Shown in pieces: positions 1,460 through 45,921 of a stretch of 61,671 nt of DNA. A program made the translations under genes and the position numbers. The stretch's first letter is position 1. The number at the start of each line of letters is the position of its first letter. The DNA is taken from the NCBI GenBank assembly GCA_964640465.1, contig CAZXHR010000002.1:1-61671 (forward strand). The letters run 5' to 3'. The DNA is from an uncultured Opitutaceae bacterium (lineage in GTDB: Bacteria > Verrucomicrobiota > Verrucomicrobiia > Opitutales > Opitutaceae). The notes below the pieces were generated by a model. The model was not told the DNA's origin. It ran no database searches and saw only the letters and a program-made list of their open reading frames with translations.

Positions 1460-1486
1460 GGATGATTCCTTTGGTTGGGAGAGGGT

Positions 1487-3256: not shown

Positions 3257-3275
3257 CGGATGCGGAGTGGCGCGA

Positions 3276-4115: not shown

Positions 4116-4224
4116 TTTCGATTTCTTGTTCCGGGGCGCGTCGGGCGACGGCGGACCGTGGTGGCGGCCGTCGGGAAGCGCGGAGCTGCGAGACGTTCGC
4201 CGGGCTCCGCGGGTGCGCGCGGCT

Positions 4225-5262: not shown

Positions 5263-5305
5263 GGAAACGATGGCGTGGCGGTGAGGTGGGCGGAGTGTGG
5301 GACGT

Positions 5306-7805: not shown

Positions 7806-7836
7806 GCGAATGGTGTCGTTGAAGGTTGGAGCTCGA

Positions 7837-10160: not shown

Positions 10161-10165
10161 GGCGG

Positions 10166-12381: not shown

Positions 12382-12382
12382 G

Positions 12383-13045: not shown

Positions 13046-13100
13046 GGGAGAAATGGGAGAGAGGGGAAGGATGGGAGGAATGGGATGCGCGGAGCGGAAC

Positions 13101-13126
13101 GGTCGCGGGCGAGCCGCGACCCTACC
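13101..13126. repeat. REP-like hairpin with a GGTAGGG head (minus-strand reading GGTAGGGTCGCGGCTCGCCCGCGACC)
   Basis: Palindrome ggtcgcgg/ccgcgacc, read directly. The TAG within the head is the stop codon of the gene at 13122-14171. Confidence 0.65.
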
Positions 13127-14171: not shown

Positions 14172-14339
14172 GGCGACGGACGGATGGAGGCGGAGCGGTT
14201 TGGTTGGGTGGTGGTGGCGGGCGGAAGGACGGAGGCGGTTGGCGTTCGGCTCACACGGGGAGCGCTGGCCGAGCGCGCGACCCGCTTGGGGGCAAGCGGG
14301 TCCACCCGCAGGCGGGCGGCAGCGCGTGTCGGTAGGTAC

Positions 14340-15410: not shown

Positions 15411-15444
15411 TGGGAGTGCGTGATGGAGAGGTGGAAGCAGCGGG

Positions 15445-16296: not shown

Positions 16297-16303
16297 GGGA
16301 GTG

Positions 16304-17146
16304 TCAGATGCCCTCGGCGACGGAGGCGACGAGCGACTCGGCTTCGATCCGGTCGATCAGGTCCTGTTGGAAGCGTTCGTCGATGCGTTGGCGCAGGGCG
16401 ACGAACTCCGGCGTGCGGGAGAGTTCGCGGCGCTGGCGCGGGCGAGGGAAGGGGATGTCGAGCTGCTCGATGACGCGGCCGGGCGTGGAGCCGAGGAGGA
16501 CGACGCGGTCGGAAAGGTACAGGGCCTCGTCGAGGTCGTGGGTGACGAAGACGACGGTCTTGCGCGGGCTGGAACCGGCCCAGATGGCGATGAGAAGATC
16601 CTGGAGCTTGGCGCGGTTGAGCGGATCGAGGGCGCCGAAGGGCTCGTCCATGAGGAGCACCTTTGAGCCGAGGGCGAAGGTGCGCGCGATGGCGCCGCGC
16701 TGGAGCATGCCGCCGGAGAGTTCGAAGGGATACTTCGCGGTGGCGGCCTCGAGGCCGACGAGCCCGAGGAATTCGGCGGCGGTGATGCGGCGCTGCTCGT
16801 CGGTGGTCTCCGGGTGGGACTTGGAGAGGGCGAACTCGACGTTCTCGGAGAGCGTGAGCCACGGGAAGAGCGAGTAGTCCTGGAAAACGACTCCGCGTTC
16901 CAACGACGGGCCGACGAGCGGACGGCCCTGCCAGGAGAGGCTGCCGGACTGTGGGCGATCGAGACCGGCGAGGAGGCGCAGGAGCGTGGTCTTGCCGCAA
17001 CCGCTCGGGCCGAGAAGCGAGACGAACGATCCGGCGGCGATATCGAGCCGGATGTCGGATAGGATCGGCGTGCCGGCGTAGGCGAAGTTGACGGCTTCGA
17101 TCTGCAGGCCGGTGTCGGCGGAGGTGGTGGCGGGTGTGGTGCTCAT
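16304..17146 (-). CDS. ABC transporter ATP-binding protein (SsuB/TauB-like)
   Basis: Start reset to the ATG at 17146. Walker A GPSGCGKTT, signature LSGGMLQR, Walker B LLMDEPFGALD. Confidence 0.85.
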   Translation of the reverse strand: MSTTPATTSADTGLQIEAVNFAYAGTPILSDIRLDIAAGSFVSLLGPSGCGKTTLLRLLAGLDRPQSGSLSWQGRPLVGPSLERGVVFQDYSLFPWLTLSENVEFALSKSHPETTDEQRRITAAEFLGLVGLEAATAKYPFELSGGMLQRGAIARTFALGSKVLLMDEPFGALDPLNRAKLQDLLIAIWAGSSPRKTVVFVTHDLDEALYLSDRVVLLGSTPGRVIEQLDIPFPRPRQRRELSRTPEFVALRQRIDERFQQDLIDRIEAESLVASVAEGI

Positions 17147-17401
17147 GGATCGCGGTGCGCGGTTGAGGCGGGTGGGCGAAGTGGGTGGGACGGGCCGGGT
17201 GGCGTGTGGGCGGGAGTTGCGAGTTGGGCGAAGCGAGGACTGGCGGAGTTGAGGGTTGGTGACGGATTTCGGGCATGGCATGGCCCACGCCCCGTGTCTC
17301 GGGAGTTCGGAGAGGAGGGCCGGTGTGGCGGAGACCGCTCAGCCGTCACACCGGCCGTGGCTGCGTCGAGATGTGGGGGACGCAGCGAAGATGGTGCGGG
17401 A

Positions 17402-18748
17402 TCAGAAGGCGGCGCGGAGGCCGAAGGTCAGGATGTCCTGCGAGTAGGTGCGGCCGGGGAAGGCGGTGTGGTCGAGTTTGTTCCGGGCCTCGTTGCGGGC
17501 GTAGTCGACGGTGAGCGCCCAGTTCTTGTCGACGTCGTAGCGTAGGCCGGCGGAGTAGGTGTAGAACCAGTCCTTGCGGACGGTGGGCAGGGCGTAATCG
17601 GAACCGAGGATACGGAAGCCGAGGTTGCCGGAGAGCGCCGGGGAGAACTTGTGCCTGAGGGTGAGCCCGTAGGTGCTGTCGCGGTAGGAGGCGACGCCGG
17701 TGCTGGAGACGAAGTTCCAGATCTTGTGGGCGAGGACGAGGGAGTCGTTGGCGGAGAGGTCGGCGGTGGCGGAGGCCTCGGTGTAGAGCCAGGTGTGGTT
17801 CTTCTCGGCGATGCCGCGTGTGGCGGTGGCGTTGTCGAAGGTGCGGAAATCGGGGCCGGCCTGGAGGTCGACCTTCAGCCAGGAGGCGAGCTTGCCTTCG
17901 ACGCCGACGAGGAGGCGGCTGTACTTGCTGGCGCTGTCGACCTGCGACCAAGGGAGGTCGTCCTGCCCTTGCGCGCCGTAGCGGTAGCCGGTCCAGAGCG
18001 AGACGTTCTTGTTCAGCTTGGCGCCGACGTCGATGCCGGCGTTCAGGTCCTGGCGGTCGATGTAGTTCTGATACCCGACGTAGGTCCCGGTGGGCTGGTG
18101 GAGCTGGGTCTTGAGGTCGTAGTAGAGGACGTTGGCGACGGCGCGGACGAACCAGGCATCGGCGTCGTAGCGGAGCTGGAGCTTGGCGCGGTCCTGGAAC
18201 TGCTCCTTGCGCTCGCGGGAGCTGGCGGAGCCGTAGGCGTTGAGGAGGCCGTACTGCGGCGTGGTGGACTTGCCGTCGACGTAGGTGAAGGTGTTGTCGA
18301 GGGAGAAGGTGACGGCGTCGGACTTCGTTTTGAGCTGCTGGGAGAAGTTGTGGCGCTGGTTGGTCTCGCTGGAGGCGGAGTGGTAGAACGCGTAGTCGGC
18401 GGCGTAGCCGATGTTGAAGGCGGTGACGGCGGAGTTGTCGCCGAGGCCGAGGGCGGAGCGGAGGTTGAGGACGGCCTTCGGGGAGATGACGGTGACCCAG
18501 GATTCGACGTCGGCCACTTCGGGCAGGCCGGCGAGGGTGGGGTTGAACTCGGTGCCGTAGACGTTGGAGTCGTAGGTTTCTTTGACGGTGACCGAGAGTT
18601 CGGTGAGGGCGGCGGGCTTCTCGGCGAGGGCCGAGGTGGCGAGGCCGGCGGTGGCGGCGAGGGCGAGCAGGCGCGGGAGGCGGGCGAGCTGGCGTTGTTG
18701 CGAGGAGGTCGCGCGGGACGACCGGTTGAGCGCGAGAGAGAAGGACAT
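17402..18748 (-). CDS. outer-membrane beta-barrel protein (putative porin/channel)
   Basis: 448 aa with a signal peptide (LALAATAGLATSALA). The body has the alternating Tyr/Gly/Asp-rich pattern of amphipathic strands, and the protein ends in a terminal Phe (LRAAF). Confidence 0.65.
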   Translation of the reverse strand: MSFSLALNRSSRATSSQQRQLARLPRLLALAATAGLATSALAEKPAALTELSVTVKETYDSNVYGTEFNPTLAGLPEVADVESWVTVISPKAVLNLRSALGLGDNSAVTAFNIGYAADYAFYHSASSETNQRHNFSQQLKTKSDAVTFSLDNTFTYVDGKSTTPQYGLLNAYGSASSRERKEQFQDRAKLQLRYDADAWFVRAVANVLYYDLKTQLHQPTGTYVGYQNYIDRQDLNAGIDVGAKLNKNVSLWTGYRYGAQGQDDLPWSQVDSASKYSRLLVGVEGKLASWLKVDLQAGPDFRTFDNATATRGIAEKNHTWLYTEASATADLSANDSLVLAHKIWNFVSSTGVASYRDSTYGLTLRHKFSPALSGNLGFRILGSDYALPTVRKDWFYTYSAGLRYDVDKNWALTVDYARNEARNKLDHTAFPGRTYSQDILTFGLRAAF

Positions 18749-18907
18749 GTTGAGAGGAGTCGGTTGGCTGACGAGGGCTCCAGTTGTCTGGTCGGAGTGG
18801 GATGGGTTGGGATCGCCGCTGGTGCGGTGGATTTGGCGGCTGCGCGCCGCCGGAACGGAAAGGTGTGGGGACGGCTTGGGCTGCGCGGCGCGGCTGGGGA
18901 GCGGAGA

Positions 18908-19090
18908 TCAGGGCAGGGAGGCGCTAGTGAGGCGGGTTTTCTCGGTGCGCTCGATGAGGGTGACCTTGGCGTCGTGGATGACGATCTGGACGACTCCGAA
19001 GCGCAGGTCCCTGACTTTGTCGCGGACGATGTTCAGCCATTCGGGGGCATTCTCTGCGCTAGGAGCTTGAGGATTGGCTGTGGTGCTCAT
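18908..19090 (-). CDS. YezD/DUF2292-like small protein
   Basis: Start reset to the ATG at 19090, giving 60 aa. The core FGVVQIVIHDAKVTLIERTEKTRL resembles the DUF2292 pattern. It is the first gene of the minus-strand array. Confidence 0.6.
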   Translation of the reverse strand: MSTTANPQAPSAENAPEWLNIVRDKVRDLRFGVVQIVIHDAKVTLIERTEKTRLTSASLP

Positions 19091-19299
19091 GGAGACGGGA
19101 GAATTGGTAAGTGTCAGAAGAACAAAGTGAAGAGATGGATGTCGGGCTAGAAAGATGTAACAGGAGTAAAGAAAACAAGAAGACGCAGACATTGCAAGCA
19201 CTAATAAACCAAGATTACCTAATAACTAAACAAATGCCATGCTTCCCGCTCCTGTTTATCCCTGTCTTGTCCCTCGAAAGTACTTCATACGCTGCGTCG

Positions 19300-19550
19300 A
19301 CGCCTCGAGCGGGGCATTATCTGTTGCTCGAAGGCTTGATGGTGCAGTTTTCGCGAGCGATGCCCTCGGCGACATGCGTGTTCGATACCGGAGTACCGTG
19401 ACTCCGGTTACTCGGATACCGAGTATACGGTGTACCGTTACGATTGCGGTGCACGGATCGCTGCGCCACGGCGTCAACCAGCGCGCAGTGCAGGAGATCC
19501 TCGGGCACTCCGATCCAAGCTTGACCGGGAACGTCTTCACCGACGTTCCC
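19300..19550 (+). pseudogene. decayed tyrosine-recombinase (integrase) remnant
   Basis: The fragment LRHGVNQRAVQEILGHSDPSLTGNVFTDV resembles the C-terminal R/H...LGH...Y box of integrases, with Tyr replaced by Phe. Upstream pieces are in another frame (LLLEGL...). The region looks AT-richer. Confidence 0.45.
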
Positions 19551-19725
19551 GCGCTCTCTCTCCACTCGGAGATGGCGAAATTGCCATGGATCACGGAGGA
19601 AGGGCAGCGATTGGAATCGGTGTCACACCTGGTGTCACAAAACGGCGAGAAAACGCCCTCAGAGCCTTCTCTCCCCGAAATCCTGCAGCAACTGCGGGAT
19701 ATTCTGCAAAGTGTTCGGATTCAGG

Positions 19726-19761
19726 CAAAAACAAACCCGGCTCCGTTGGCGGAAGCCGGGT
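19726..19761 (-). terminator. rho-independent terminator (probably the ancestral tRNA-Asn terminator)
   Basis: Minus strand reads ACCCGGCT-loop-AGCCGGGT followed by TTGTTTTTG. It directly abuts the partial tRNA copy. Confidence 0.6.
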
Positions 19762-19776
19762 CTGAATCTGTAGAAT

Positions 19777-19821
19777 GGCTGCCCAGGCTGGGATCGAACC
19801 AGTGACCAAGTGATTAACAGT
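19777..19821. repeat. attL: 45-bp copy of the 3' half of tRNA-Asn
   Basis: 44 of 45 nt are identical to 28104-28148. The one mismatch (19802 T versus 28129 C) would break the T-stem. Confidence 0.9.
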
Positions 19822-19930
19822 TTCTTGGTTTGCCTGTTCCTCCTTGTCCATCATTGTCCGCTTGTGGCCGTCTGAAAAGACGGTTTTACCTCTGAGAAAT
19901 CAACCGGGAGCACAAGACGGAAGGGAAAAG

Positions 19931-21289
19931 ATGATGACAACCGAGGACACCAAAAACCGGACAGTAACCGGACAGACAAACCGGACAGACAAAACCGCCC
20001 GCCCGGCCAAGACGCATCAGGACTACTGGAAAACCCGCCTGAAACACCGGTGCTACCAAGACCGGGAGGGCAAGACGGTGGAGATCCCGGAATGGCAGGT
20101 CCGCATGTTCCATCTCGGCCGCGAAGTCTGGTTCAACCTCGACACCGCCAACCAGACCGCGGCGGCCATCAAAGCCCGCGACATCTTCCTTTCCCTCGTC
20201 TCCGCCGGTTGGACGGCCACCTTGGCGAAATACAAGCCGGGCACGCCCGCCAAGGTCGGGGGCTGCACGCTGGGCGAGTTCCTTGCCGACGTGGAGAAGC
20301 GCAGCCACCTCAAGCCCGCCACCGTCCGCCGGTATGCCGTGAAGCTGCGCAAGCTCGTTGCCGACATCGCCAAGGTCGAAGCCGGGATGAAAGCCAAGGA
20401 GCGCCGCAAGAAGTTCGATTACGTGAACGGCGGGCACGCCGAATGGCTCGCCAAGGTCGACGGCCAATCGCTGGCGTTGCTCACCCCGGAGAGTGTCAGC
20501 GGCTGGCGCAATAGCTACGTGGCCAAGGCCGGCACCGATCCGGTTGAGCGGAAGTCGGCGGAGCGCTCGGCGGCGACCGTTCTGCGGTGCTCCCGTGCGC
20601 TCTTCTCCCGCGACGTGCTGGCCATGCTCAAGGTCATGCTGCCGCCCGATCCGTTTGCGGGCGTGAAGCTGAAGGACCCCGGCCCGCAGCGCTATCACTC
20701 CGACGTAAGCCCGGAATGGGTGCTGGCGTGCGCGGAACGCGAGCTGAAGGCCGAACACTCGCAAGAGTTCATGGCGCTTCTGCTCTGCCTGTGGGGCGGC
20801 CTGCGGCGCAAGGAGGCCGACACCCTGACTTGGGCGCAGGTCGATTTCGGCGAAGCGCAAATCCACATCCGCCGGACGGAGCATTTCGAACCGAAGACCG
20901 AGGAGAGTCAGCGCACGGTCGACGTGCCGCCGGCGGTGCTCGACGTGCTCCGCGGGTTCAAGAAGGACAGCACATCGGAGTTCGTGCTCGATGGCGGACC
21001 CGCCAACCCGGCGGCGACCTACGATTACTACCGGGCCGACTGCACGTGGCGCCGGTTACACGCATGGCTCAAGGACAAGGGCGTTTCGCAACAGAAGGCC
21101 ATCCACGCCCTACGCAAGGAGTCCGGTTCGCTCGTGGCGTGCGCGTTCGGGATCGAGGCCGCCCGCCAGCATCTCGGGCATGGGGACATCCGCACGACCT
21201 CCGCGCACTACGTCGAAAAGAAACGCCGGATCGAGGTGCAACTCCCGACCGGCGAGAAGGCGGGCCAACTGCGGACGATGGAGGGGTAA
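19931..21289 (+). CDS. int: tyrosine recombinase/integrase
   Basis: C-terminal catalytic boxes AIHALRKESGS and LGHGDIRTTSAHY. The ATG at 19931 is preferred; the ORF-track start at 19844 is possible. Confidence 0.85.
   Translation: MMTTEDTKNRTVTGQTNRTDKTARPAKTHQDYWKTRLKHRCYQDREGKTVEIPEWQVRMFHLGREVWFNLDTANQTAAAIKARDIFLSLVSAGWTATLAKYKPGTPAKVGGCTLGEFLADVEKRSHLKPATVRRYAVKLRKLVADIAKVEAGMKAKERRKKFDYVNGGHAEWLAKVDGQSLALLTPESVSGWRNSYVAKAGTDPVERKSAERSAATVLRCSRALFSRDVLAMLKVMLPPDPFAGVKLKDPGPQRYHSDVSPEWVLACAERELKAEHSQEFMALLLCLWGGLRRKEADTLTWAQVDFGEAQIHIRRTEHFEPKTEESQRTVDVPPAVLDVLRGFKKDSTSEFVLDGGPANPAATYDYYRADCTWRRLHAWLKDKGVSQQKAIHALRKESGSLVACAFGIEAARQHLGHGDIRTTSAHYVEKKRRIEVQLPTGEKAGQLRTMEG
19952..19980 (+). 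repeat. 29-bp arm-type repeat containing CCGGACAG units (left copy)
   Basis: aaaaaccggacagtaaccggacagacaaa is identical to 28009-28037. A third CCGGACAG unit follows at 19981. Confidence 0.8.
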
Positions 21290-21544
21290 CCCAAGCGCGC
21301 ATTGATTTCGGATACACTGGATTACCACCTAAGGGCGCGATTGACATCGCCTGCCCAAGTTGATTCAGGTCTGTCAGCGGCCCAAACCCGGGGCTGCTCC
21401 GGACACCTCCTGATTATGTGAGCCCGGAGCAGTAGGACACTTTGGTACGCGGAACACGCCCGTCGTGCCTCCGCTTGTGCGGATGGATTGAGACCGGGCA
21501 CAACCGCCACTCTGAATGATCGCCTCGCGATCAAGGAGTTTCCT

Positions 21545-21754
21545 ATGTCCGAGAATACGCCCGCCGTAAGTGAACGGCGGTTTCTGAAGAGCAAACAAGC
21601 CGCCGAGAGAATCGGCGTCTGCAAACGAACATTGATCCGATGGAGCGAGACCGGAGTACTTCCCCGGTACAAGATCGGGAATACGGTTCTTTGGGCTGAA
21701 GACGAACTGTTACGCCTCATCCAGAATGGACGAGTTGGAGGGCCTGCCCAATGA
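21545..21754 (+). CDS. AlpA/excisionase-type HTH DNA-binding protein
   Basis: 69 aa. The stretch KQAAERIGVCKRTLIRWSETGVLPRYKIGNTVLW is the typical HTH_17/AlpA pattern. Confidence 0.75.
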   Translation: MSENTPAVSERRFLKSKQAAERIGVCKRTLIRWSETGVLPRYKIGNTVLWAEDELLRLIQNGRVGGPAQ

Positions 21755-21936
21755 CCGCGGCAGAACAGGCACTGACCTTGCGGCGGATCGCGTCGCTCAA
21801 GGAGGAGATCGCCACGGCACAAGCGAAGATGCCGCGGATGCAGGAGGCGATCCGTACCCGCCAGCAAACCCTTGTCCGGCTTGAGGCCAGACTCGCCCTC
21901 GACGAGTTGCGCCCGGCCCGCTCCTCCCGTGAATGA
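21751..21936 (+). CDS. small coiled-coil protein, unknown function
   Basis: 61 aa with an ATGA overlap on the alpA-like stop. Predicted helical (LKEEIATAQAKMPRMQEAIRTRQQTLVRLEARL). Confidence 0.45.
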   Translation: MTAAEQALTLRRIASLKEEIATAQAKMPRMQEAIRTRQQTLVRLEARLALDELRPARSSRE

Positions 21937-23317
21937 GTCGACCGATCCGGCCATCCCGGTTGCGGATTTGCTGGCGCGGAAAGTGTCCTTCTTCGCATCG
22001 GTTCGTGAAACCAGCCCATCGCAAGCCATGACGGTGGGCGGCGTCCTGGATGCCATGCGCGATGGCCGTTGGCGTGAGCCGATGGTAGCCATGCGCGCGG
22101 ACTTCCGGGAGGGCAGACAGGCTTACTACAAGGCCAAGAAAGAGGCCCTGCCGGCGGTGACCTTCTCCGGAGTGTTTGGCCGACACTCGATCACGGGCTT
22201 GCGCGATCACTCGGGGTTGCTGTGCGTCGACTTCGACGATCTTGGCGTCCGCCTTTCGGATGCTCGCCGGGCAATCGAGGCCGACTCCCATGCTCTCGCG
22301 GTCTTCGTTTCGCCTTCAGGCAATGGCTTGAAAGTCCTCGTCCCGATTGCGGCGGCCGATGCCGAAGGACACCGGCGGTGCTTCGATGCAGCTGCCGCAC
22401 ACTTCCGGCGGCTGGGCTTCGGTGCCGATGCTCACTGCCGGGATGTTTCTCGCCTATGCTTCGTTTCCTACGATCCCGACCTTTGGATTCGGCAAGGGGA
22501 GTGCGTGCCGTTCCTCGGTTCGTCTCCGGAGCCTGAAACCTGTACCTGTACGTCTGAACCCTGTACGTCTGAACCCTGTACTCTGAACCCTGTACTCTAT
22601 ACTACAGAGGAGGATCAGCGGGTTCTCGTGGTCAAGGCCCGTGCCCGTGCCGAGGCCAAGCAGCGGTTGGATGAGATGAAGAAACACTCGCCGGTCTTGG
22701 TTGGTCTGTACCGGTCAGAGTTGGAAGATCGGTTCGAACCGGGACTGCACAAACGGAATGCATGGCTGCTTGAGGCTGTCCCGTTCCTATTTCGTGCCTG
22801 CCATCGAGACGCGGCGGAAGCGCTGGCGCTGCTCCATCTCCGGATTCACCCGAAACTCTACGCTGGCCCGGAAGAGGAGCATCGAACCTCGTTCTTGGGC
22901 CTGTGGGAGGGGCTTGAGCATGAATACCCGGCCAGATTGTCGCTGTCCGAAAAGGACATCTACGAGCAATTGGACGAACGCGAACGGAGCGCATTCCGAA
23001 TCTGCAAGGATCTCGCACACGCGAAGAAAGATCGGACATTCTTCCTCGCCAGCGACCATCTTGCGGCACGCCTCGCCTTGGGGCCGGTCAAAGGATGGCG
23101 GCTCTTGCAGACATTCGAGAAGCTCGGATTCCTCCGGCTGGTTTCGAAGGGCGATACCTACGCCAAGGGGCTAGGCCGGCGAGCCCGGGCCAGCACCTAC
23201 CAGTGGCTTCTGCCGGATGCGCCTGCGACGGCGAGCGGAGCGCCAACGGCGGCAGGAATGAGCACCGATTTACCGGATAACGACAGGACACCCCCAACCC
23301 CAATCAATCCCCCATGA
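21872..23317 (+). CDS. primase/replication-initiation-like protein (VirE-N/BT4734-like N-terminal domain)
   Basis: The stretch LPAVTFSGVFGRHSITGLRDHSGLLCVDFDDL resembles the VirE_N/BT4734-like primase-associated domain. The start is uncertain: ATG at 21872, or an in-frame GTG at 21929. Confidence 0.55.
   Translation: MSGLRPDSPSTSCARPAPPVNESTDPAIPVADLLARKVSFFASVRETSPSQAMTVGGVLDAMRDGRWREPMVAMRADFREGRQAYYKAKKEALPAVTFSGVFGRHSITGLRDHSGLLCVDFDDLGVRLSDARRAIEADSHALAVFVSPSGNGLKVLVPIAAADAEGHRRCFDAAAAHFRRLGFGADAHCRDVSRLCFVSYDPDLWIRQGECVPFLGSSPEPETCTCTSEPCTSEPCTLNPVLYTTEEDQRVLVVKARARAEAKQRLDEMKKHSPVLVGLYRSELEDRFEPGLHKRNAWLLEAVPFLFRACHRDAAEALALLHLRIHPKLYAGPEEEHRTSFLGLWEGLEHEYPARLSLSEKDIYEQLDERERSAFRICKDLAHAKKDRTFFLASDHLAARLALGPVKGWRLLQTFEKLGFLRLVSKGDTYAKGLGRRARASTYQWLLPDAPATASGAPTAAGMSTDLPDNDRTPPTPINPP
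22533..22596 (+). repeat. iteron-like tandem repeats, 4 units of CTGAA(A/C)CCTGTAC(GT/T)
   Basis: Read directly. The units begin at 22533, 22554, 22569 and 22583. They lie in the interdomain linker of the pri/rep-like gene and encode PETCTCTSEPCTSEPCTLNPVL. Confidence 0.75.
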
Positions 23318-23661
23318 AACACCTCCTCACGCCCAAGGAAGACGCCTTTGCCCGAGCCATCGTCAGCGGATGCGGGCCCTCGGAAGCCTATCGGGCAGCC
23401 GGGTATTCGACGCGAGGGACGCCGGCGACCATCGCAAGCGAAGCGTCGCGCGTTCTGGCCCGTCCGCATGTGGCGGACCATATCGCCGCACTGTTGGAAA
23501 GGGCCGAGTCCAGATGCGTCCTCGATCATATCGAGCTGCGAGAGCATTGCGCCAGAATCGCGCGTGACCCTCGCCAGCCCGCAGCGGCGGTGCTCTCGGC
23601 GGTGATGCTCGACGCCGCACTCGCCGGGGAGTTGAAACCAAGCCGATCCCGGCGCCGCTAG
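23314..23661 (+). CDS. terminase small subunit-like protein (Terminase_2-type N-terminus)
   Basis: LTPKEDAFARAIVSG...EAYRAAGYS...ASRVLARPHVADHIAALL matches the pattern typical of phage TerS N-termini. There is an ATGA overlap with the pri/rep stop. Confidence 0.65.
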   Translation: MKHLLTPKEDAFARAIVSGCGPSEAYRAAGYSTRGTPATIASEASRVLARPHVADHIAALLERAESRCVLDHIELREHCARIARDPRQPAAAVLSAVMLDAALAGELKPSRSRRR

Positions 23662-23769
23662 GGCCGGAACAGCGGCGGAATCATTCGCCTGCCCGCCGGG
23701 CATCTTCGCGGAGGTCGAGGGATAGCACGGGAATGTCGGATGCGGCCCCCGTCGGAATCATGGCGTCGT

Positions 23770-24576
23770 TCAGCCGTCCCGCCGCCGCTTGATGCCATTC
23801 ACTGTGCAGAGCGTCATTGTCGCGATCGCCGAGAGCCAAAGGAATCCATGGATCATGCGGCTCCAATCAAGCCGCAGCGATTGCCGAAATCTGTCGCTGT
23901 CGCTCGGGACACGTCCGTTCGACGGCCAAGGGGGGTCCTGCGCGAGGAAGAACCGGGGGCCTAGATGGTCTTGGTAGATCACAGTATGGCCGGAACCGAT
24001 CTCTCGCGTGTAGAATGGAAACGAGAGGCTGAGCACGGCGACGACAAGAATCATGAACCCGAACCGCCGGACGACGGGCGATGATGCCCGATGAAGCAGG
24101 CGCTCCGCTGCCGGGTGAACTCCAAGTGCGGCAAACGAGTTCGAGCTGTGCCCGGTTGTCTGGCGCTGGCCCGGCCCCTGTGCAACGGCCTCAAACGCTC
24201 CCTCGGTATTGTGGTCCTCTTCCAGCGATCCCGGCTCGTCTTGCGCTCCGGGATTGGGCTGCGATTCGCCGCAAACGCATCCTCCGGTGTCGGTATCGGA
24301 TGTCTCTTGTTGCTTCCCTGCACGAAGCAAGGCCACCCGCTCCCTGATCGCGCGGTTCATCTGCTCTGCGAACTGGTCGAGATGGTCGGATCGTTTCAGA
24401 ATGCCTGCATCGACCAATGGCATCACGACGGTGACAACGTATTGTCGATTCTCGTTCGACAAGACGTCGCCGTTGTCGATCGCCTCTTGGAAAATCGATA
24501 GCAACTGCGCTCTCGAAATCCGCCCTGCATCGCTGTCGGCAATCGCGACTCCCAGCATTTTAGTGATTTGGGCCAT
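23770..24576 (-). CDS. hypothetical membrane protein (island cargo)
   Basis: 268 aa: an N-terminal soluble helical region, an acidic/Gly linker, and two C-terminal hydrophobic segments. No family was recognised. Confidence 0.55.
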   Translation of the reverse strand: MAQITKMLGVAIADSDAGRISRAQLLSIFQEAIDNGDVLSNENRQYVVTVVMPLVDAGILKRSDHLDQFAEQMNRAIRERVALLRAGKQQETSDTDTGGCVCGESQPNPGAQDEPGSLEEDHNTEGAFEAVAQGPGQRQTTGHSSNSFAALGVHPAAERLLHRASSPVVRRFGFMILVVAVLSLSFPFYTREIGSGHTVIYQDHLGPRFFLAQDPPWPSNGRVPSDSDRFRQSLRLDWSRMIHGFLWLSAIATMTLCTVNGIKRRRDG

Positions 24577-24635
24577 ATCAGGGTCTCCATCTAGTTCAGG
24601 TGGGTTCTACGAGGTGCGAACAGGGTTTGTTACCC

Positions 24636-27137
24636 CTACGGCGTCTCCCCAAGCGAAGCCGGAATCGCGGCGCGGTTCCTCTCAATGATGGCTTGCTGCC
24701 TTTCGCCTATCCGCCCAATCGCGCCAATAAGCTCCCAGAAGCCTTCACGATCCTCCTGCTTCGTGAAAGAGATCTTCTTGTCATGAAGGACCCATGTATC
24801 TCGCGCGGCCAGAAAACGCACCGCCTCTTCAATCTTGTCCACAATACCTTCCTCCAATGCCCAAAGCTCGACGCCATCCTTAGCCGCTTCTCGGGCATTC
24901 AGGTCGAATGCCAACAGACATCGCCGCTTCTCCTCGGATGAGATGGGCAGGTTCTCGATCTTTGTTCGGAATCTGGACATCAACCCCATGCTGATCGGCT
25001 TGAACTTGGCGATGACCGCTCTCGCTCGCCGGATTTTTCCCGTGGCTTCAACAAACCCAGGGTCGTTTTTCATGCGAGATGGCAGCACGCACGTATCAAG
25101 ATCGATTTCTCGAAATTCATGGAGGTAGGCATCGCGGATAGCTGTCGCCTCTTCTATCAGCTCGTTTGTGAGGCGTAAGGCCATTGCCTCCTTCCCTTCG
25201 GCAGTCTGTTTTTCTGGAAGAGGACGGACCGAATCTTTGATAGATGTCGCAGATTGAGCAGCACCCGATGCGGCGGATGCAGAAATCGATTCTGGTGTTG
25301 GCTCGGGTTGAGCCACCGGGGAGTTCGTCTGCGCTGCGAATGCGGTTCGGGCATTCGCCCGTAATGCCTCCTCCTTTCTCTCCAGCTCTTCATCAAAAGC
25401 GCTCATGGCACGTTCTCGGAACATCGCATGGAGCTCGGTTTTCTCCTGTGCTGCGCGCGCGGCTTTCATTCGACTCGAAAAATAGCCATTCACCATCGCC
25501 AGTGCGGCGCCGAAGAGGGCTAGGACCAGAAGCCAAGCCGGAGTATTCCTTCGCCTCGCTGGGGGCGCTCCCACTGCCACAGAATCCGGAGCATGCTGCT
25601 CGGGCGAGTTCTCCCTGTTAAGCAGACTGCCGTCGGCACTCGCAGGTTCGCCGCCTATCCTTGACGTGGGCTCCGAGTCACTGTGCGCTCCGGTGGGATT
25701 TGCACGCGGGTTGTTTCTACGAAAAAGCGAGTAGCCAAGGCACATAGCCGCAAGAAGCGCGAGGTTTATGGCGTGTCCTGCCATATCTATCACAATATCC
25801 CCAACGCTCCAAGGTGCGCTGGGGTTTTCGAGTGATGCCGCCATGCTTTTTCTCTTCTCGATCCGCTCTTTGATTCGACCGTGGAACTCGGCCGGGGTGA
25901 GCTTCATCGGCTCACCGAACACTTGAGCCGTGTACTGGAGCTGGAGCGCATCGTACTGGTTCGCAACGTCCTTGGCCGGGAGCTTGAACGCCACCGCCAT
26001 CGCATGGACGTTCGCCATCCACATGCGGCGGTTCTCCGACTCCTGCGGATCGTCCGTGCTGTAGATGTAACTCACTGCACGCTCGCGCTCCGGCTCAGTG
26101 AGCGCGTTGAGGAAGCTGGTCTGGTCGCCGAACATCGCCTCGATCTTGGCGCGCTCAGCGAGTTTTTCCTTGGTCAGATACTTGTGATTGCCTCTCTCTG
26201 TTTCACTACTCCCGTTCTGCGCACTGGGCTGCGATGGAAGATGGGGAGATGTGGCTGTCGGGGCGGATAGCGCGTAGTTCTCGGTGATCACAGGTGCAAC
26301 GCTGAGGCCGGCGAGATAGAACAAAGCCAGAGAAGCCGACGCGATGAACGAAGTACTACGCTTTTGCCGTGGAAACAGCGCCGGAATGCACAAGAACAGA
26401 TAGGCGAGGAACAGCGACTGACCCAACCACTCAGCGAGCGGCGTGCGGTTTCCGCTCCACGCTGCCGCCTGCAAGAGAAGGCAAAGAATGACAGTTATCC
26501 AAACACCGGGTGCTATCAGGGGATTTGCAGCCCCATTTTGACTAGCTCGCCTGTGTTGATTTGGACTCTGGGGCGCAGGATCGGGTTTGGGTGAGTCTTG
26601 AGGCGGTGCATCCGGAATACTGGGGGTCGGTTGTGATCCCACTCCCAACGGTGTTCCACCCGTTGGGTCCTGCGCTGGCTTGGCGGGGACAGGGGATTGA
26701 AACACCACCGCCAAAGTTCGCACAGCCATCCCGGCCCAGATCAGCAGGAAGATCAGTACCGAAACCGGCCGCACTTTTTCATCTAGCAGTTCGCAGAATA
26801 CTATGCCGAAAACCGGAGTGGCACCGAGGCACCCGAGCAGAGCGAGAGGTGGCAGCCAGCTCCAACGCTTTGCGTATCCAGACATCTGCCGCAGCAGCCA
26901 GAGAAGCCCAATCGAAACGAGTGAGATCCAGACCCAATTCAGCAATGTCGCGCCAATGTGGAATCTCCCGCGCTCGATCACGTCCAAAACGAAGTCATCG
27001 CCGCCGTTCGGGAACGTCGTGCAAACGAGGGCGGCGACAAAAACGATAACCTTGGTTGAGCGTGACGGTTCAGTGAGGGGCATTAGCGCAAGGGAGTTGA
27101 GGCAGGGGGCGCAAGGAGTCGGTGCCAATAGGCGCAC
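24636..27137 (-). CDS. large polytopic membrane protein, unknown function (island cargo)
   Basis: 833 aa. It has an N-terminal multi-TM block with a Pro-rich linker, a central soluble region, further TM segments, a coiled coil and a C-terminal globular region. No catalytic motif was recognised. An alternative start lies at 27083. Confidence 0.6.
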   Translation of the reverse strand: MRLLAPTPCAPCLNSLALMPLTEPSRSTKVIVFVAALVCTTFPNGGDDFVLDVIERGRFHIGATLLNWVWISLVSIGLLWLLRQMSGYAKRWSWLPPLALLGCLGATPVFGIVFCELLDEKVRPVSVLIFLLIWAGMAVRTLAVVFQSPVPAKPAQDPTGGTPLGVGSQPTPSIPDAPPQDSPKPDPAPQSPNQHRRASQNGAANPLIAPGVWITVILCLLLQAAAWSGNRTPLAEWLGQSLFLAYLFLCIPALFPRQKRSTSFIASASLALFYLAGLSVAPVITENYALSAPTATSPHLPSQPSAQNGSSETERGNHKYLTKEKLAERAKIEAMFGDQTSFLNALTEPERERAVSYIYSTDDPQESENRRMWMANVHAMAVAFKLPAKDVANQYDALQLQYTAQVFGEPMKLTPAEFHGRIKERIEKRKSMAASLENPSAPWSVGDIVIDMAGHAINLALLAAMCLGYSLFRRNNPRANPTGAHSDSEPTSRIGGEPASADGSLLNRENSPEQHAPDSVAVGAPPARRRNTPAWLLVLALFGAALAMVNGYFSSRMKAARAAQEKTELHAMFRERAMSAFDEELERKEEALRANARTAFAAQTNSPVAQPEPTPESISASAASGAAQSATSIKDSVRPLPEKQTAEGKEAMALRLTNELIEEATAIRDAYLHEFREIDLDTCVLPSRMKNDPGFVEATGKIRRARAVIAKFKPISMGLMSRFRTKIENLPISSEEKRRCLLAFDLNAREAAKDGVELWALEEGIVDKIEEAVRFLAARDTWVLHDKKISFTKQEDREGFWELIGAIGRIGERQQAIIERNRAAIPASLGETP

Positions 27138-27166
27138 CGCGGAGGATACGAGCTGACGTTTCGTTT

Positions 27167-27210
27167 TACGGCATGTCGTGCCGTTCTGTCAAAGTCTCCG
27201 ATACGGCATG
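27167..27210. promoter_or_regulatory. candidate operator in the divergent xre/cargo control region
   Basis: A 17-bp palindrome ACGGCATGTCGTGCCGT sits at 27168-27184. TACGGCATG is repeated at 27167-27175 and 27202-27210, between the 833-aa gene and the XRE gene. Confidence 0.35.
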
Positions 27211-27217
27211 ATGGGGC

Positions 27218-27445
27218 GTGCGATCCAAGGACGCCACTGCCCAACAACTGAAGCTCTTCGGGGCCAATCTCCGCCGTGAGCGGCTGGCCCGGGGCTTCAC
27301 GCAGGAACGGCTGGCGGAGTTGGCGGACCTGAACCCGCGCACGCTTCAGAAGATCGAGGCCGGCCAAACGAACATCCTCGTGACGACTGCCCAACGCCTC
27401 CGCTCCGCTGTGGGCTGCGCGTGGGGCGCCCTGCTTGGCGAATAG
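27218..27445 (+). CDS. XRE-family (Cro/CI-type) HTH transcriptional regulator
   Basis: 75 aa with a GTG start. LRRERLARGFTQERLAELADLNPRTLQKIEAG is the canonical HTH_3 pattern. Confidence 0.8.
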   Translation: MRSKDATAQQLKLFGANLRRERLARGFTQERLAELADLNPRTLQKIEAGQTNILVTTAQRLRSAVGCAWGALLGE

Positions 27446-27689
27446 GCGCACGCCCAAGGCTTCCGTGGGCCCGCGAGGCCAAGTCCTGCGGTTGGCGCTT
27501 GTCGGTGGCGTGGCGGCCGGATTCTCGGCTCGCGTGAGAGTGACTTACGAAAGTCCGAACTCGTTAGGGTATTGCGTCTATCAACCGAACAAGCGCGCAA
27601 GTCTCGGAAGAACCGGGCAGGCTCTTCGCAGCCAAGCGGCGCCCGAACTGCCCTTTTCGCGGTAGGAGGCCTACACCGATCCCGGGAGG

Positions 27690-28049
27690 GTGGCGCCGTT
27701 GTCCACAGCCCCGGCTGGCGGGATGGTAGTCGCCATGCCGCCATCACCCGCACCGCTTGCCGGACCCATCGCCGAGCCCGCCGGCTTGACCTGCCGGCGC
27801 TTCAGCAAGGCCAAGCCCATCGCCGCCCGGCTGGGCATCTGCTCGCGCACGCTCTTCCGTTGGGCGGATGCCGGGTTGATCGCCCGCCACAAGATCAACG
27901 CCCGCGTCGTCCTCTTCGATGAAACGGAGGTGGCGGCTTTCGTCGTGGCCGCACGGGTGGAGGCGGTGCGACCGGACAGCATGGCCGGCGAAGGTCGGAC
28001 AGCGTTCGAAAAACCGGACAGTAACCGGACAGACAAATCCCGTTTGTAA
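27690..28049 (+). CDS. excisionase/AlpA-type HTH DNA-binding protein
   Basis: KPIAARLGICSRTLFRWADAGLIARHKINARVVLFDETEV. Paralogous in pattern to 21545-21754. The true start may be the internal ATG near 27735. Confidence 0.65.
   Translation: MAPLSTAPAGGMVVAMPPSPAPLAGPIAEPAGLTCRRFSKAKPIAARLGICSRTLFRWADAGLIARHKINARVVLFDETEVAAFVVAARVEAVRPDSMAGEGRTAFEKPDSNRTDKSRL
28009..28037 (+). repeat. 29-bp arm-type repeat (right copy)
   Basis: Identical to 19952-19980. Additional (C/T)CGGACAG units lie at 27972 and 27995. Confidence 0.8.
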
Positions 28050-28062
28050 CGGAATCCGGATA

Positions 28063-28095
28063 GCAAAAACCTCTGAACCCTTTCGGATTCAGAGG
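28063..28095 (-). terminator. rho-independent terminator of tRNA-Asn (supplied by the element)
   Basis: Minus strand reads CCTCTGAAT-loop-TTCAGAGG followed by TTTTTGC, just 3' of the tRNA CCA end. Confidence 0.65.
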
Positions 28096-28103
28096 CTTGA
28101 AAT

Positions 28104-28178
<75 letters not shown>

Positions 28179-30999: not shown

Positions 31000-33219
31000 T
31001 CAGCGCCGCGGGGCGAAGGCGTTGTGCTGGTTGGCGGCGACGGGGGTGCCGGTCTGCGCCCAGAGCTGCTGGCGCGGCCAGAGGTCGATGGCATCGGAGA
31101 GAATGCGGAGGCTCTCGCGGAGATGGATGTCGATGCGTGTCTTCGGGTCGGTGTCGTAATCGTCCGCCTCGTCGTCGGATTTTGTGGGCGGGGTGACGGG
31201 CTCGGGATCGGGGGCGACGTTGTCGAGCTTCACCTCGGTGCTGGGGAAGTTGAGCTTGGCGAGCTCGAGACGCTGTTTTTTGGCGGCATCGCGGAAGGCG
31301 TCGTCGTCCTTCTTCTGGGTGCGGCGGGTCTCGAGGTTGAGGGAGACGGTTTTGCGTTCCTCGTACTGCTTGAAGCGCTCGATGTTGTGGCGGAGGTAGG
31401 AGAATTCCTCGAGGGTGGTCTGGCGGGACTGGCTGCGCTGGCGGAGGATGTCGAGAAAGCGGGCATCGAGGGAGGCCCCCTCGAAACGGGTGGTGCGGAT
31501 GGTGTCCCAAGCGAGGGCGTGGGGAAGATCGGATTCGCCGATGGGGAGGAACTCCTCGATGGAGGGGAGGGCGATGTCGGAGACGACGCCGCGGTTCTGG
31601 GTGGAGGCGCCGTTGGGGAGGTAGAACTTCTGTATCGTGATCTTCGTGGCTCCGGAGCGGGGTGGATTCTGGATGAATCGGGAGAAGCGGGATTCCTCTA
31701 GGATGGGCAGGACGGTCTGGACGGTGCCTTTGCCGTGGGTGGAGTTGTCGCCGATGACGATGGCTCGGCCGTAGTTTTGGAGGGCTCCGGCGACGATCTC
31801 TGAGGCGGAGGCGCTGTAGCGGGAGGTGAGGACGGCGAGGGGACCGTCCCAGACGGTGCGGGGGTTTTCGTCGGCGCGGACTTCGATGCGGCCGATGGAG
31901 TCCTTTACCTGGACGACGGGGCCTTTGGCGATGAAGAGGCCGGTGAGATCGACGGCTTCGGAGAGGAGACCGCCGCCGTTGCGGCGCAGGTCGAGGACGA
32001 TGCCTTTGGCGCCGGCGGCGATGAGCTTGCGGAGGAGTTGCTCGACGTCGTTGGTGGCACTGACTGCGGGATCGCCGCTTTCGTCCTCGTTGGCGCCGTA
32101 GAAGGCCGGAAGCTCGATGACGCCGACGGGGATGGTGCCGTGGCCGTCGGTGGCGGGGACTTGTTCGAGGGTGGCGCGGGCGCGTTTGTCGTTGAGTTTG
32201 ACCTCGTCGCGCACGAGCGAGATCTCGCGGCGGACGGAGGTGTCGGTGGCGTCGCCGGGCTGGATGAGGAGGCGGACGGTGGTGCCTTTGTCGCCGCGGA
32301 TGAGCTGGACGACTTTGCGGAGCTTCATGCCGACGACATCGACGAACTCGGCGGGGCCTTGGGCGACGCCCATGATCTTGTCGTTGGGGTGGAGCTGCTT
32401 TGAGAGGTCGGCCGGGCCGCCGGGGATGAGTTCGCGGATGGTGCAGATGCCGTCCTCATCGGCGAGCTGGGCGCCGATGCCGATGAGCTTGAGGCGCATC
32501 TGCATATTGAAGTCGTCGAGGGTGGAGGGGGACATGTACGAGGTGTGGGGGTCGTACATGGCGGCGAGGGAGGTGAGGTAGATCTCTTGAATCTCCTCGC
32601 TATCGATCTCGTCGAGGCTGTGAAGGAGGCGTTCGTAGCGTTTGCGGACCTTGTCCTTGGCGGCGTCGAGGGCTTTGACCGCATCGCCGGTCTTGTCGTT
32701 GAGGATGTCCTGCAGGAGCTCGAACTTCAGGCGCTGGCGCCAGAGGTTGTTGGCTTGGTCGAGGGTGGAGGGCCAGGGGGCCTTGGAGCGGTCCCAGTGG
32801 AATTCCTCGGCGATGGTGAAATCGATGTCTTTGGCCAGTTCGAGGCCGATCCAAGCGACGCGGGCTTCGACGCGCTCGCGGTAGATGCGGAAGGCTTCGT
32901 AGGCGGCGTCGATGTTGCCGAGGTAGCGGAGGTCCTTGGCGAGGCGTTCGCCGTAGCGGGCCGTGAGTTGATCCTGGTCGGAGGCCAGGAAGAACATGTG
33001 GTAGGCGTCGAGCTCACCCATGAAATCGGGGATGAGCTGGCGAAAGTCGTCGTTGGTGAGTTCGCGGCCTTGAAAATGGAAACTTTCCAGGAAGCGCACC
33101 ATGCGGGTCGTTTCCTGCACCATCACCGGGGTGGTGACGAACGGGGTTACCTGCGGCTGGACAGCCCAGCAGGTGGCGGCGAGTGCGAGGAGAAACGCGG
33201 AGAAAAGGCGGCGGCTCAC
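31000..33219 (-). CDS. prc: carboxy-terminal processing (tail-specific) protease, peptidase S41
   Basis: 739 aa with a signal peptide, a PDZ-like region and an S41 core (SASASEI...). Length is typical of Prc. Confidence 0.8.
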   Translation of the reverse strand: MSRRLFSAFLLALAATCWAVQPQVTPFVTTPVMVQETTRMVRFLESFHFQGRELTNDDFRQLIPDFMGELDAYHMFFLASDQDQLTARYGERLAKDLRYLGNIDAAYEAFRIYRERVEARVAWIGLELAKDIDFTIAEEFHWDRSKAPWPSTLDQANNLWRQRLKFELLQDILNDKTGDAVKALDAAKDKVRKRYERLLHSLDEIDSEEIQEIYLTSLAAMYDPHTSYMSPSTLDDFNMQMRLKLIGIGAQLADEDGICTIRELIPGGPADLSKQLHPNDKIMGVAQGPAEFVDVVGMKLRKVVQLIRGDKGTTVRLLIQPGDATDTSVRREISLVRDEVKLNDKRARATLEQVPATDGHGTIPVGVIELPAFYGANEDESGDPAVSATNDVEQLLRKLIAAGAKGIVLDLRRNGGGLLSEAVDLTGLFIAKGPVVQVKDSIGRIEVRADENPRTVWDGPLAVLTSRYSASASEIVAGALQNYGRAIVIGDNSTHGKGTVQTVLPILEESRFSRFIQNPPRSGATKITIQKFYLPNGASTQNRGVVSDIALPSIEEFLPIGESDLPHALAWDTIRTTRFEGASLDARFLDILRQRSQSRQTTLEEFSYLRHNIERFKQYEERKTVSLNLETRRTQKKDDDAFRDAAKKQRLELAKLNFPSTEVKLDNVAPDPEPVTPPTKSDDEADDYDTDPKTRIDIHLRESLRILSDAIDLWPRQQLWAQTGTPVAANQHNAFAPRR

Positions 33220-33426
33220 GTGGCGTGGAGATTGATTGGGAGAAGGAAACGCCGCAGCGGGGAAGGTTCCCGTTGCTGTGGCGCCGGCGAGTGTTGCAGG
33301 ACAGGGTATCGGTGCAAGCTCGGGGCAGCTGAAGGAAGAGCGTGCCCGCTGATCGTAACCGGCGCGGGTTTGCGACTGTGGGGCGCCCGAGCGGAAGATG
33401 CGCCCCTGCTGGTCGCCGGCAGCGCG

Positions 33427-34326
33427 CTAATGTTTGGTCATCAGGTTCCGCGCCTCGTCGAGGGTGCGTTTCTCCTCGGCGGTGAGGGAGCCGAATCCGC
33501 TGGTGTTGATCTTGTCGAGGATGCGGTCGACTTCGGCCATGAGATCTTCGCGCGCAGTCAGGTTGACCTTGAAGGAAGAGGAGGTGGCCCCGGCGCTCTT
33601 CTTTTTCATCCACGAGGGCAGTTCGATGGTGCGGTGTGGGCGTTCATCCTCGTCTTCCTCGCCGGGTTCAGGGGCGTTGCGGATCGCCCGGTAGGCGATG
33701 ATGCCGGCGACCATGCCAGCGATGTGGGCGGAATGGGCGAACCCGCTCGGGGCTCCCACGGGGAAGAGTTCGGCGAAGAGGAAGAAGAGCGCTTCGATGC
33801 CGCCGATCACCATCAGGAAGTAGCGGGGGACAATCGTGAGCGGGATCACGAAGAAGAGCAGGATCGTCATCCGCTCGTAGGCGAAACGGCAGCAGAACAA
33901 CGCGAGCAGACCGTACGCGCCGGCGGATGCGCCGAGGAGCGGGGGCGGGTAGGGTCGGAAGAAATTCACGGCGAGCCAGAGCAGGCCGCCGGCGAACACC
34001 GCACAGAAGTACGTCCACAGGAACCTCCGCGTGCCGACAACTGGCAGGAGGATTCGCCCGACGAAGAGGATGGCTAGGACGTTGCCGATCAGGTGCAACA
34101 GGTTGTCCCGATCATGGAGCAGGCTGTATGTGAACAGGGTCCAGATACGCCCGCTGGCGATGTTTGCCGGAGAGAGCGCCAGCCACCGTGAGGTGGTGCC
34201 CGGCACGATCGCGTCGATCGAACACTGCACGATGAATCCGGCGACGATCGCTCCCAGCAGCCAGAGCAGGGGGGCAAGCCCCTTTGCGGGATCGTTGGCG
34301 CGCATGTAGTAGCGGTCGGAGATCAT
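33427..34326 (-). CDS. rhomboid-family intramembrane serine protease
   Basis: Polytopic, with the GxSxG-type motif GASAGAYGL and the HIAGMVAG histidine helix, followed by a C-terminal soluble tail. Confidence 0.75.
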   Translation of the reverse strand: MISDRYYMRANDPAKGLAPLLWLLGAIVAGFIVQCSIDAIVPGTTSRWLALSPANIASGRIWTLFTYSLLHDRDNLLHLIGNVLAILFVGRILLPVVGTRRFLWTYFCAVFAGGLLWLAVNFFRPYPPPLLGASAGAYGLLALFCCRFAYERMTILLFFVIPLTIVPRYFLMVIGGIEALFFLFAELFPVGAPSGFAHSAHIAGMVAGIIAYRAIRNAPEPGEEDEDERPHRTIELPSWMKKKSAGATSSSFKVNLTAREDLMAEVDRILDKINTSGFGSLTAEEKRTLDEARNLMTKH

Positions 34327-45232: not shown

Positions 45233-45237
45233 AAAGT

Positions 45238-45915: not shown

Positions 45916-45921
45916 CAGTCC

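Follow-up and report, generated by a model that had tools for sequence, protein, structure and literature searches.

A stretch of 61,671 nt from an uncultured Opitutaceae bacterium (contig CAZXHR010000002.1; hereafter the window) carries, next to a tRNA-Asn gene, an island of ~8.4 kb whose gene content resembles that of a phage satellite. Between its terminase-like gene terS and a gene for an XRE-family regulator lie two cargo genes, encoding the proteins that we call B and C. We found that B appears to be a mosaic membrane protein into which the N-terminal domain of a putative phage ejection protein has been inserted in frame, and that the interval in which it lies has been filled by at least five different cargos. 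Judged from these sequences, B may act in superinfection exclusion by interfering with the ejection conduit of incoming phages, a reading that we favour tentatively over membrane-disrupting abortive infection.

Protein B and its phage-like insert

The gene for B (24636..27083, minus strand) most likely starts at the ATG at 27083 and would encode 815 amino acids (aa). This start is used by gene callers in four independent assemblies, and three of three homologues begin at the equivalent residue. The open reading frame (ORF) extends further to a GTG at 27137, so the 833 aa given for B in a preliminary description of this DNA exist as a frame but are probably not the protein. C (23770..24576, minus strand; 268 aa) follows 59 nt downstream, and the XRE-family helix-turn-helix (HTH) regulator is encoded on the plus strand (27218..27445; 75 aa, GTG start) at the backbone edge of the cargo slot. 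The ORF positions, together with a match of the regulator to Pfam HTH_3 (PF01381; 7.4e-11, 42.4 bits versus a cut-off of 23), bear out the earlier picture of 833-aa and 268-aa frames 59 nt apart with a divergent GTG-start XRE gene. In PADLOC the regulator matched generic control-protein and HTH models only. With the ATG start of B, the control region in front of xre measures 134 nt rather than the 80 nt first described. The cargo had also been called AT-richer than its flanks, which is the case (GC 0.573–0.582 at 24–27 kb versus 0.64–0.67), and its GC at third codon positions (GC3) is 0.63–0.70 versus 0.83–0.91 in four measured host genes.

Hydropathy of B revealed ~9 transmembrane (TM) segments, a Pro-rich linker, a soluble centre, two more TM segments, a helical stretch and a C-terminal domain; it thereby supported the layout proposed earlier, as it did the two C-terminal TM segments of C. 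A word-seeded search of 5.8 billion clusters with B returned just two relatives, and an exhaustive phmmer search of 1.84 billion representatives gave 304 hits, which fell into three separate modules. On this basis B is a predicted mosaic polytopic membrane protein of three modules. The four-TM N-module (B aa 1–145; 26649..27083, minus strand) was found only in this island family: its relatives are P0001, P0002 and P0071, all of them cargo proteins of such islands, with 84–88% identity in P0001 and P0002, 55–60% in P0071 (a fusion with DUF4328) and a DNA identity to the window of ~90%.

The module that ties B to phages is the insert (B aa 303–420; 25824..26177, minus strand; phmmer E 1.7e-38 to 5e-14). 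Its only relatives among the 1.84 billion representatives were P0069 (289 aa), P0070 (1,526 aa), P0072 (1,639 aa) and P0078 (1,581 aa), with identities of 65, 65, 51 and 44%, respectively, to their residues 3–120, and the matches begin at residue 3–5 in all four. For P0070 and P0072 we could see the genomic context, which is a podophage structural module. The P0070 locus encodes a tail protein (PHROG_376), a head-morphogenesis/acetyltransferase protein, an internal virion protein (PHROG_418), a ~525-aa protein and the giant protein; at the P0072 locus, the gene before the ~525-aa protein matches Pfam T7_gp14. By order and size, this layout would correspond to the gp14–gp15–gp16 ejectosome arrangement of T7-type phages. 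B shares only the N-terminal ~117 residues with the proteins at the gp16 position and is no such giant protein itself; the donors show no detectable sequence similarity to T7 gp16, and their N-domain is not recognisable as a lytic transglycosylase.

P0001 aligns with B straight across the insert position, from TM6 to TM7, and P0002 and P0071 also lack the insert, which argues that B was the recipient. The insert is thus an in-frame acquisition of the donor gene's first ~117 codons. The frame was kept, and the acquired piece is domain-sized, starts at the donor's first residues and sits exactly between two TM segments. GC content is 63% in the donor phage contigs and 64.5% in the window.

About 290 of the 304 hits belong to the C-terminal module, a helical-bundle domain with a beta-hairpin (B aa 625–815; 24639..25211, minus strand). 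These relatives show 20–34% identity over B aa ~610–810 and are typically 250–350 aa long, with one to four N-terminal TM segments and the domain at the end. An AlphaFold2 (AF2) model based on 143 sequences was confident (predicted local distance difference test (pLDDT) 90.7, predicted template modelling score (pTM) 0.86) and showed a long helical bundle plus one beta-hairpin, for which Foldseek returned generic or designed helical bundles only (best E 0.3 in PDB, 0.13 in BFVD). Thirteen of the 143 family members match Pfam DUF3053 (PF11254; best E 5e-7), and several relatives carry lipoprotein or Sec signals; E. coli YiaF, a DUF3053 protein, is an envelope lipoprotein. B itself did not match DUF3053, and its C-terminal domain matched no family. 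We therefore rejected B as a DUF3053 member, given the missing Pfam match and a non-significant hhalign probability of 0.7% against YiaF; DUF3053 is possibly a distant relative at most. In E. coli K-12, yiaF is divergent from the XRE-type gene yiaG (L027, 3718334–3719768), the same arrangement as that of B and xre. The XRE of the window has no sequence similarity to YiaG, so this may be coincidence. In other members of its family, the C-terminal domain can be preceded by Zn-ribbon or RDD modules, among others. The window also encodes a 318-aa protein (49346–50302, plus strand) that, judged by eye, combines an RDD-like membrane domain with a zinc ribbon at its N-terminus; it lies in a patch of 0.53 GC near clpB (51193–53790).

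B and C look like real genes that are constrained yet fast-evolving, because their ratios of nonsynonymous to synonymous substitution rates (dN/dS) were 0.29–0.78 against diverged copies. For B, we obtained 0.40–0.78 in the N-module (0.78 versus L006), 0.29–0.45 in the C-terminal domain and 0.29–0.35 in the insert versus its phage relatives; for C, the value was 0.49 versus a diverged copy. Both ORFs are identical across at least four independent metagenome assemblies. These data bear on whether B could be a decaying chimeric gene without present function, as its mosaic build, the loss of a gene A found in other versions of the locus and the fairly high N-module ratio versus L006 might indicate. 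Since the 815-codon ORF is intact and unchanged across these assemblies, dN/dS is below 1 in every module and the C-terminal model is confident, we regard decay as very improbable. A further contig, L009, had seemed to be a variant with fragmented B and C. It is 99.1% identical to the locus but has 62 indels, so that it most likely reflects an error-prone assembly of this same locus rather than a pseudogenised copy, and it was set aside.

Library searches added little. No match of B or C to Pfam, NCBIfam, PHROGs or PADLOC exceeded the curated cut-offs (the only hit was TarH, with 16.8 bits versus 25.2), no PADLOC-DB 2.0 family was found for B, C or A at E ≤ 1 or 0.01, and scans of A and the cargo variants with the same four libraries gave nothing usable. 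When B was compared by tblastn with 50,697 phage records and 72,556 plasmids, no match appeared, and scans of IMG/VR yielded nothing for either the B alignment or P0070. In the PDB, profile or sequence searches gave no significant hit for the insert, for P0070 or for the families of C and of the B C-terminal domain. The view that the two proteins lack assignable motifs thus holds for library families but not more widely, as the insert, the B C-terminal domain and the N-domain of C do have relatives. Of the remote-homology and structure-based checks that the preliminary description had proposed, AF2 models were obtained for the latter two domains, and fold and profile searches found no specific PDB neighbour of either. 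Nor did any search point to the housekeeping role, in transport or envelope biogenesis, that it had set against its own proposal.

The cargo slot between terS and xre

By combining an exact look-up of TerS (115 aa, 17 contigs) with the contigs of B homologues, we recovered five versions of the cargo. The first is that of the window, identical in L001–L004, with B (815 aa) and C. The second (L006) carries gene A, encoding a 181-aa protein with two TM segments and a weak DUF3592 match, followed by a shorter B'' (474 aa) and C; this contig ends before terS. In the third (L005), A is followed by B' (663 aa) without C, and in the fourth (L025) by a 413-aa protein in which the same four-TM N-module is fused to DUF4328. 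The fifth version (L016, L021 and L022) consists of a 193-aa lipoprotein and a 556-aa Sel1-repeat/trypsin-like protease with a signal peptide. TerS is identical between the first and fifth versions, and terS has diverged in L005 and L025. The island of L016, on a 237-kb contig, occupies the same tRNA-Asn/ROK chromosomal site.

The slot is bounded by the 3′ end of terS on one side and by xre and its operator on the other. From these comparisons, the terS-to-xre interval is evidently a true swap site, or hot spot, with at least five different cargos. Its description as the accessory slot of an integrative island was therefore borne out, by the att repeats of the island as well as by the exchange of cargo between conserved flanks. 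The cargo proteins of all five versions are predicted to be membrane-bound, lipoproteins or secreted. C is not obligatory for B-type proteins, since the third and fourth versions lack it; B and C, earlier treated as a pair, occur together in the first two versions only. The extra upstream gene A is present in three relatives and not in the window. A scan of genome contigs with the primase found nothing, and one of metagenomes gave a single contig (L014), whose sequence departs directly behind the primase, leaving it uninformative on cargo. In the related genome of L016 (1–9816 and 10351–12735), the sequence to the left of the same terS/xre backbone encodes a JetD-like protein (PADLOC 8.5e-118), a Cas5/6-type protein, a Cas4–Cas1 fusion and Cas2, which makes the neighbourhood there defence-rich.

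The control region contains an operator-like element (27167..27210) composed of the near-palindrome ACGGCATGTCGTGCCGT and a third half-site, which is kept in four cargo versions. The 17-bp palindrome reported earlier is present at 27168–27184 but is imperfect: seven of eight positions pair, with one T.G mismatch. The repeated TACGGCATG reported with it was confirmed at 27167–27175 and 27202–27210, 35 bp apart; these are the sole two copies in 61.7 kb, where 0.23 would be expected by chance. The ~55 nt upstream of xre, including all three ACGGCAYG half-sites, are essentially identical in the first, second, fourth and fifth versions, and homology between the versions breaks right beyond them. 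The XRE of L006 is 97% identical to that of the window. Since XRE and operator also flank unrelated cargo, they are part of the island backbone and form one slot edge. The divergent XRE gene noted earlier and its operator are real and conserved, but they do not belong to the B/C cargo itself. XRE may bind the ACGGCAYG half-sites and so set expression of the divergent cargo promoter, of its own gene, or of both. A sigma-70 promoter scan of 23.6–28.2 kb found none, and the cargo promoters may be of another type.

C begins with a soluble helical N-domain (aa 1–95), which is followed by a low-complexity linker, a hairpin of two TM segments and a basic KRRR tail. The hairpin and tail that follow it would place the N-domain on the cytoplasmic face. 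Its family comprises at least 61 clusters of stand-alone 90–105-aa proteins with an invariant-rich IFQEAIDNGDIL core, and C can be regarded, by sequence, as a membrane-tethered member of this uncharacterised small-protein family. The AF2 model of the N-domain (pLDDT 88) has three short helices and one long helix, and no PDB neighbour was found by sequence or structure (best Foldseek E 0.9). In most stand-alone members (P0009–P0058) the C-terminus is a conserved basic, aromatic PWW[KR]FW[KR] tail, and in one member it is a TM segment; the tail may be a membrane-interface anchor that is replaced in C by the two-TM hairpin.

The genomic settings of the family are diverse. One protein (L008) contains the N-domain twice in tandem and is encoded after an XRE-type gene; in L007 the family gene sits among unknown genes within a low-GC patch, in L011 a Y1 transposase is nearby, and in L010, from a metagenome-assembled genome (MAG) of Phycisphaerales, the neighbour is clpB. 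In the gene call for L007 (3995–4879), the family member is joined to the N-terminal half of a carboxylesterase. More probably, translation begins at an internal Met and yields the 92-aa P0006; a low-GC insertion would in that case have truncated the esterase gene.

Such settings raise the question of whether the cargo has anything to do with defence. A scan with a narrower alignment of the B C-terminal domain found two loci, both in ordinary chromosomal context, and the Methylobacter marinus (L029) member of that family is a solitary chromosomal gene. B and C could accordingly be envelope cargo that serves the host or the island, for example in stress sensing or surface remodelling, with the insert as a tolerated by-product of recombination. 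Solitary relatives of both proteins among housekeeping genes (M. marinus L029 and Phycisphaerales L010), the lack of matches in the defence libraries and the existence of insert-less B variants all fit this explanation. We nevertheless consider it unlikely on balance, though by no means negligible: the slot turns over fast between near-identical backbones, which is typical of satellite conflict genes, the four-TM module is confined to this island family, and the insert is an in-frame, domain-sized piece from the donor's first residues, placed exactly between TM segments. The association with mobile or defence contexts that the preliminary description had wanted checked is therefore present for the slot, which lies in a satellite-like island, but not for the B C-terminal and C families as a whole.

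Topology of B and possible modes of action

Many relatives of the B C-terminal domain carry a Sec signal peptide or lipobox ahead of it (P0083, P0107, P0114, P0196 and P0208), which points to an extracytoplasmic location. Between this domain and the insert lie two clear TM segments (aa ~430–448 and 518–536), which hydropathy delimits as a TM7–loop–TM8 hairpin (B aa 429–536; 25476..25799, minus strand) with a loop flanked by RR and RRR. Because the two segments lead back to the same side, the insert would be periplasmic as well, and we infer an N-in, C-out topology for B. Three short loops or loop flanks with a +3 charge (the RR/RRR hairpin loop, RQMSGYAKR and PRQKR) fall on one side of the membrane. 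Overall, the insert probably faces the periplasm.

This location bears on two other possible functions. Satellites, SaPIs among them, commonly interfere with the assembly of their helper phages (PMC11364771), and the insert, derived from a virion-internal protein, could bind helper core proteins during assembly, disturb helper virions and favour transfer of the satellite; the island's own terS would also fit such piracy. For this, the insert would have to be cytoplasmic, in conflict with its predicted periplasmic position; in addition, other island variants fill the slot with secreted proteins, and insert-less island relatives are otherwise the same, which leaves piracy quite improbable.

The other possibility is that B is an abortive-infection effector that senses a phage component, possibly via the insert, and permeabilises the membrane, with C as partner or brake. 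Membrane effectors are a common abortive-infection theme, and the many TM segments of B, the repressor-like XRE control and the membrane tether of C would be in keeping with it. A membrane-disrupting effector was also what the preliminary description had suggested; nothing in our searches points there. B has no similarity to known pore-forming or abortive-infection effectors, both of its soluble domains are predicted outside the cytoplasm, where they would sense early entry and not replication, and the alternative cargos of the slot include a periplasmic protease and a lipoprotein rather than cell-death effectors. We consider abortive infection improbable, if somewhat less so than piracy.

Superinfection exclusion, our tentative preference, is suggested by the satellite hot spot, by cargos that are all predicted envelope proteins, including a periplasmic protease, and by the predicted periplasm-facing copy of an ejection-protein N-domain. 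The periplasm is where incoming ejection proteins build their DNA conduit, and the insert would be displayed there. As a membrane-tethered copy of the ejection N-domain, possibly together with the C-terminal domain, it could compete with or poison conduit assembly, and the block would keep the phage DNA out. C and, in relatives, the DUF3592-like A might serve as accessory or modulating partners. A more specific version of this idea is molecular mimicry, in which the satellite defends its host or excludes competitors by displaying the captured N-domain as a poison or decoy on a fixed anchor, the displayed parts being swapped at the terS–xre hot spot. This is conceivable, but we consider it rather unlikely as it stands.

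Several observations weigh against exclusion. The topology of B is read from hydropathy, charge and family inference only, and when the positive-inside rule was applied crudely across the C-terminal family, the outcome was ambiguous (59 out, 48 in, 18 ties). Gene order and size are the sole grounds for calling the giant phage proteins gp16-like; no sequence similarity of theirs to any solved structure was detected, and T7 gp16 itself was unmatched. The insert may have diverged from its phage relatives mostly before it was captured, so that its dN/dS may say little about selection inside B. Insert-less B relatives fill the same slot, which means that the insert cannot be the whole function. Finally, B and C showed no homology to known exclusion or defence proteins in PADLOC, PHROGs, Pfam or NCBIfam, and the B C-terminal and C families also occur in ordinary chromosomal contexts.

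There are precedents for the outcome. SieA of phage P22 is an inner-membrane protein from a mobile element that blocks the ejection-protein conduit of podophages (PMC10883804), HXS blocks DNA entry from the periplasm (PMC13128918), and satellite-borne Tai immune systems act on phage structural steps (PMC11364771). B resembles SieA in that both are encoded on an integrated mobile element, are polytopic inner-membrane proteins (predicted for B) and are tied to podophage ejection proteins, in the case of B through a direct sequence relationship to one of them. It differs in being far larger and mosaic and in having no PHROGs similarity; no homology to a known Sie family was found in PHROG, Pfam or NCBIfam. 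SieA has not been reported to carry a copy of its target, and exclusion by B is a proposal. In our literature search, no exclusion protein was described as carrying part of its own target. The precedents would thus cover exclusion itself and not the means, as a target fragment within the excluder would be the novel element.

The island and its wider meaning

The island is delimited by attL (19776..19821), a direct-repeat copy of the 3′ part of tRNA-Asn(GTT), and by that gene itself (28104..28178, minus strand; ARAGORN, Rfam 69.4 bits), whose 3′ part forms attR (28104–28149). The two repeats share 97.8% identity over 46 nt. From left to right, the plus strand encodes a tyrosine integrase (19931..21289; 452 aa as called on other assemblies; Pfam Phage_integrase 9.5e-10), an AlpA/excisionase-like HTH_17 protein (21488..21754; Pfam HTH_17 1.5e-9), a 61-aa ORF, a primase-like protein with a BT4734/PrimPol-like N domain (22028..23317; PF08800 1.4e-24, PHROG primase/helicase 2.7e-20) and the small terminase-like TerS (23314..23661; 115 aa; PHROG_51 terS 1.8e-13, Pfam Terminase_2 31.4 bits versus a cut-off of 26.1). 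Then follow C and B on the minus strand, XRE, and a second small HTH_17/MerR-like protein (27735..28049, plus strand; 104 aa; weak HTH_17 match of 9.4e-5, called on other contigs). No capsid or tail genes were present among the ORFs of the 8.4-kb island. An integrase with att repeats, its own primase and terS, and a size within about 7–20 kb are all features of phage-inducible chromosomal island (PICI)-like satellites, and the element is, on gene content, a phage-satellite-like island of PICI-kind anatomy. Host genes show a very strong strand-specific GC3 skew (−0.45 to −0.60 on the minus strand and +0.05 to +0.30 on the plus strand; 1–19000 and 31000–34000), which is near zero in the island genes (19800–28150), in keeping with recent acquisition.

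Some further features of the island and its surroundings deserve mention. A perfect 29-nt direct repeat, AAAAACCGGACAGTAACCGGACAGACAAA, with AACCGGACAG sub-repeats, lies just inside both island ends (19952–19980 and 28009–28037) and is a candidate for integrase arm-type binding sites. A 15-nt tandem repeat within the primase-like gene (22545–22595; 3.5 copies, 97% match), which encodes a repeated EPCTS peptide, could represent replication-origin iterons. Just outside attL, a 188-aa ORF (19239–19805, plus strand; 53.6% GC) with a weak match to the Phage_integrase C-terminal part (E 0.0027) occurs in every assembly of the locus and is probably left over from an earlier element at this tRNA-Asn gene. 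The window contains no CRISPR (clustered regularly interspaced short palindromic repeats) array that would link host and phage. Outside the island, a low-GC (0.54–0.56) operon (43490–46548, minus strand) encodes two products with prepilin-type N-terminal motifs (FTLVEV... and MTLIEV...), followed by a 580-aa protein; by eye, it looks like a pseudopilin or type-II-secretion-like cluster.

Accessory hot spots of PICI and P4-like satellites carry anti-phage systems (PMC11364771, PMC10085698 and PMC8628076). The present island is like them in being small, with int, alpA-like, primase-like and terS genes, no structural genes and interchangeable cargo. It differs in that no cargo of this island family corresponds as a system to any catalogued defence system, the one cargo hit in PADLOC being to the generic trypsin domain in L016, and in its host, an uncultured high-GC bacterium; its satellite nature is read from the genes alone.

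If the proposal is true, B would be an exclusion factor that draws its specificity from a stolen piece of its own target, a simple and evolvable mechanism. Further cases would be predictable from sequence, as ejection-protein fragments embedded in membrane proteins of mobile elements, and PICI-type cargo hot spots would be extended to an uncultured high-GC lineage. The locus is also an entry to three uncharacterised families, namely the DUF3053-like periplasmic domain, the IFQEAIDNGDIL small proteins and the DUF3592/DUF4328 partners. Even if the exclusion reading were wrong, the locus would still illustrate cleanly how modular cargo is exchanged within fixed boundaries of the backbone.

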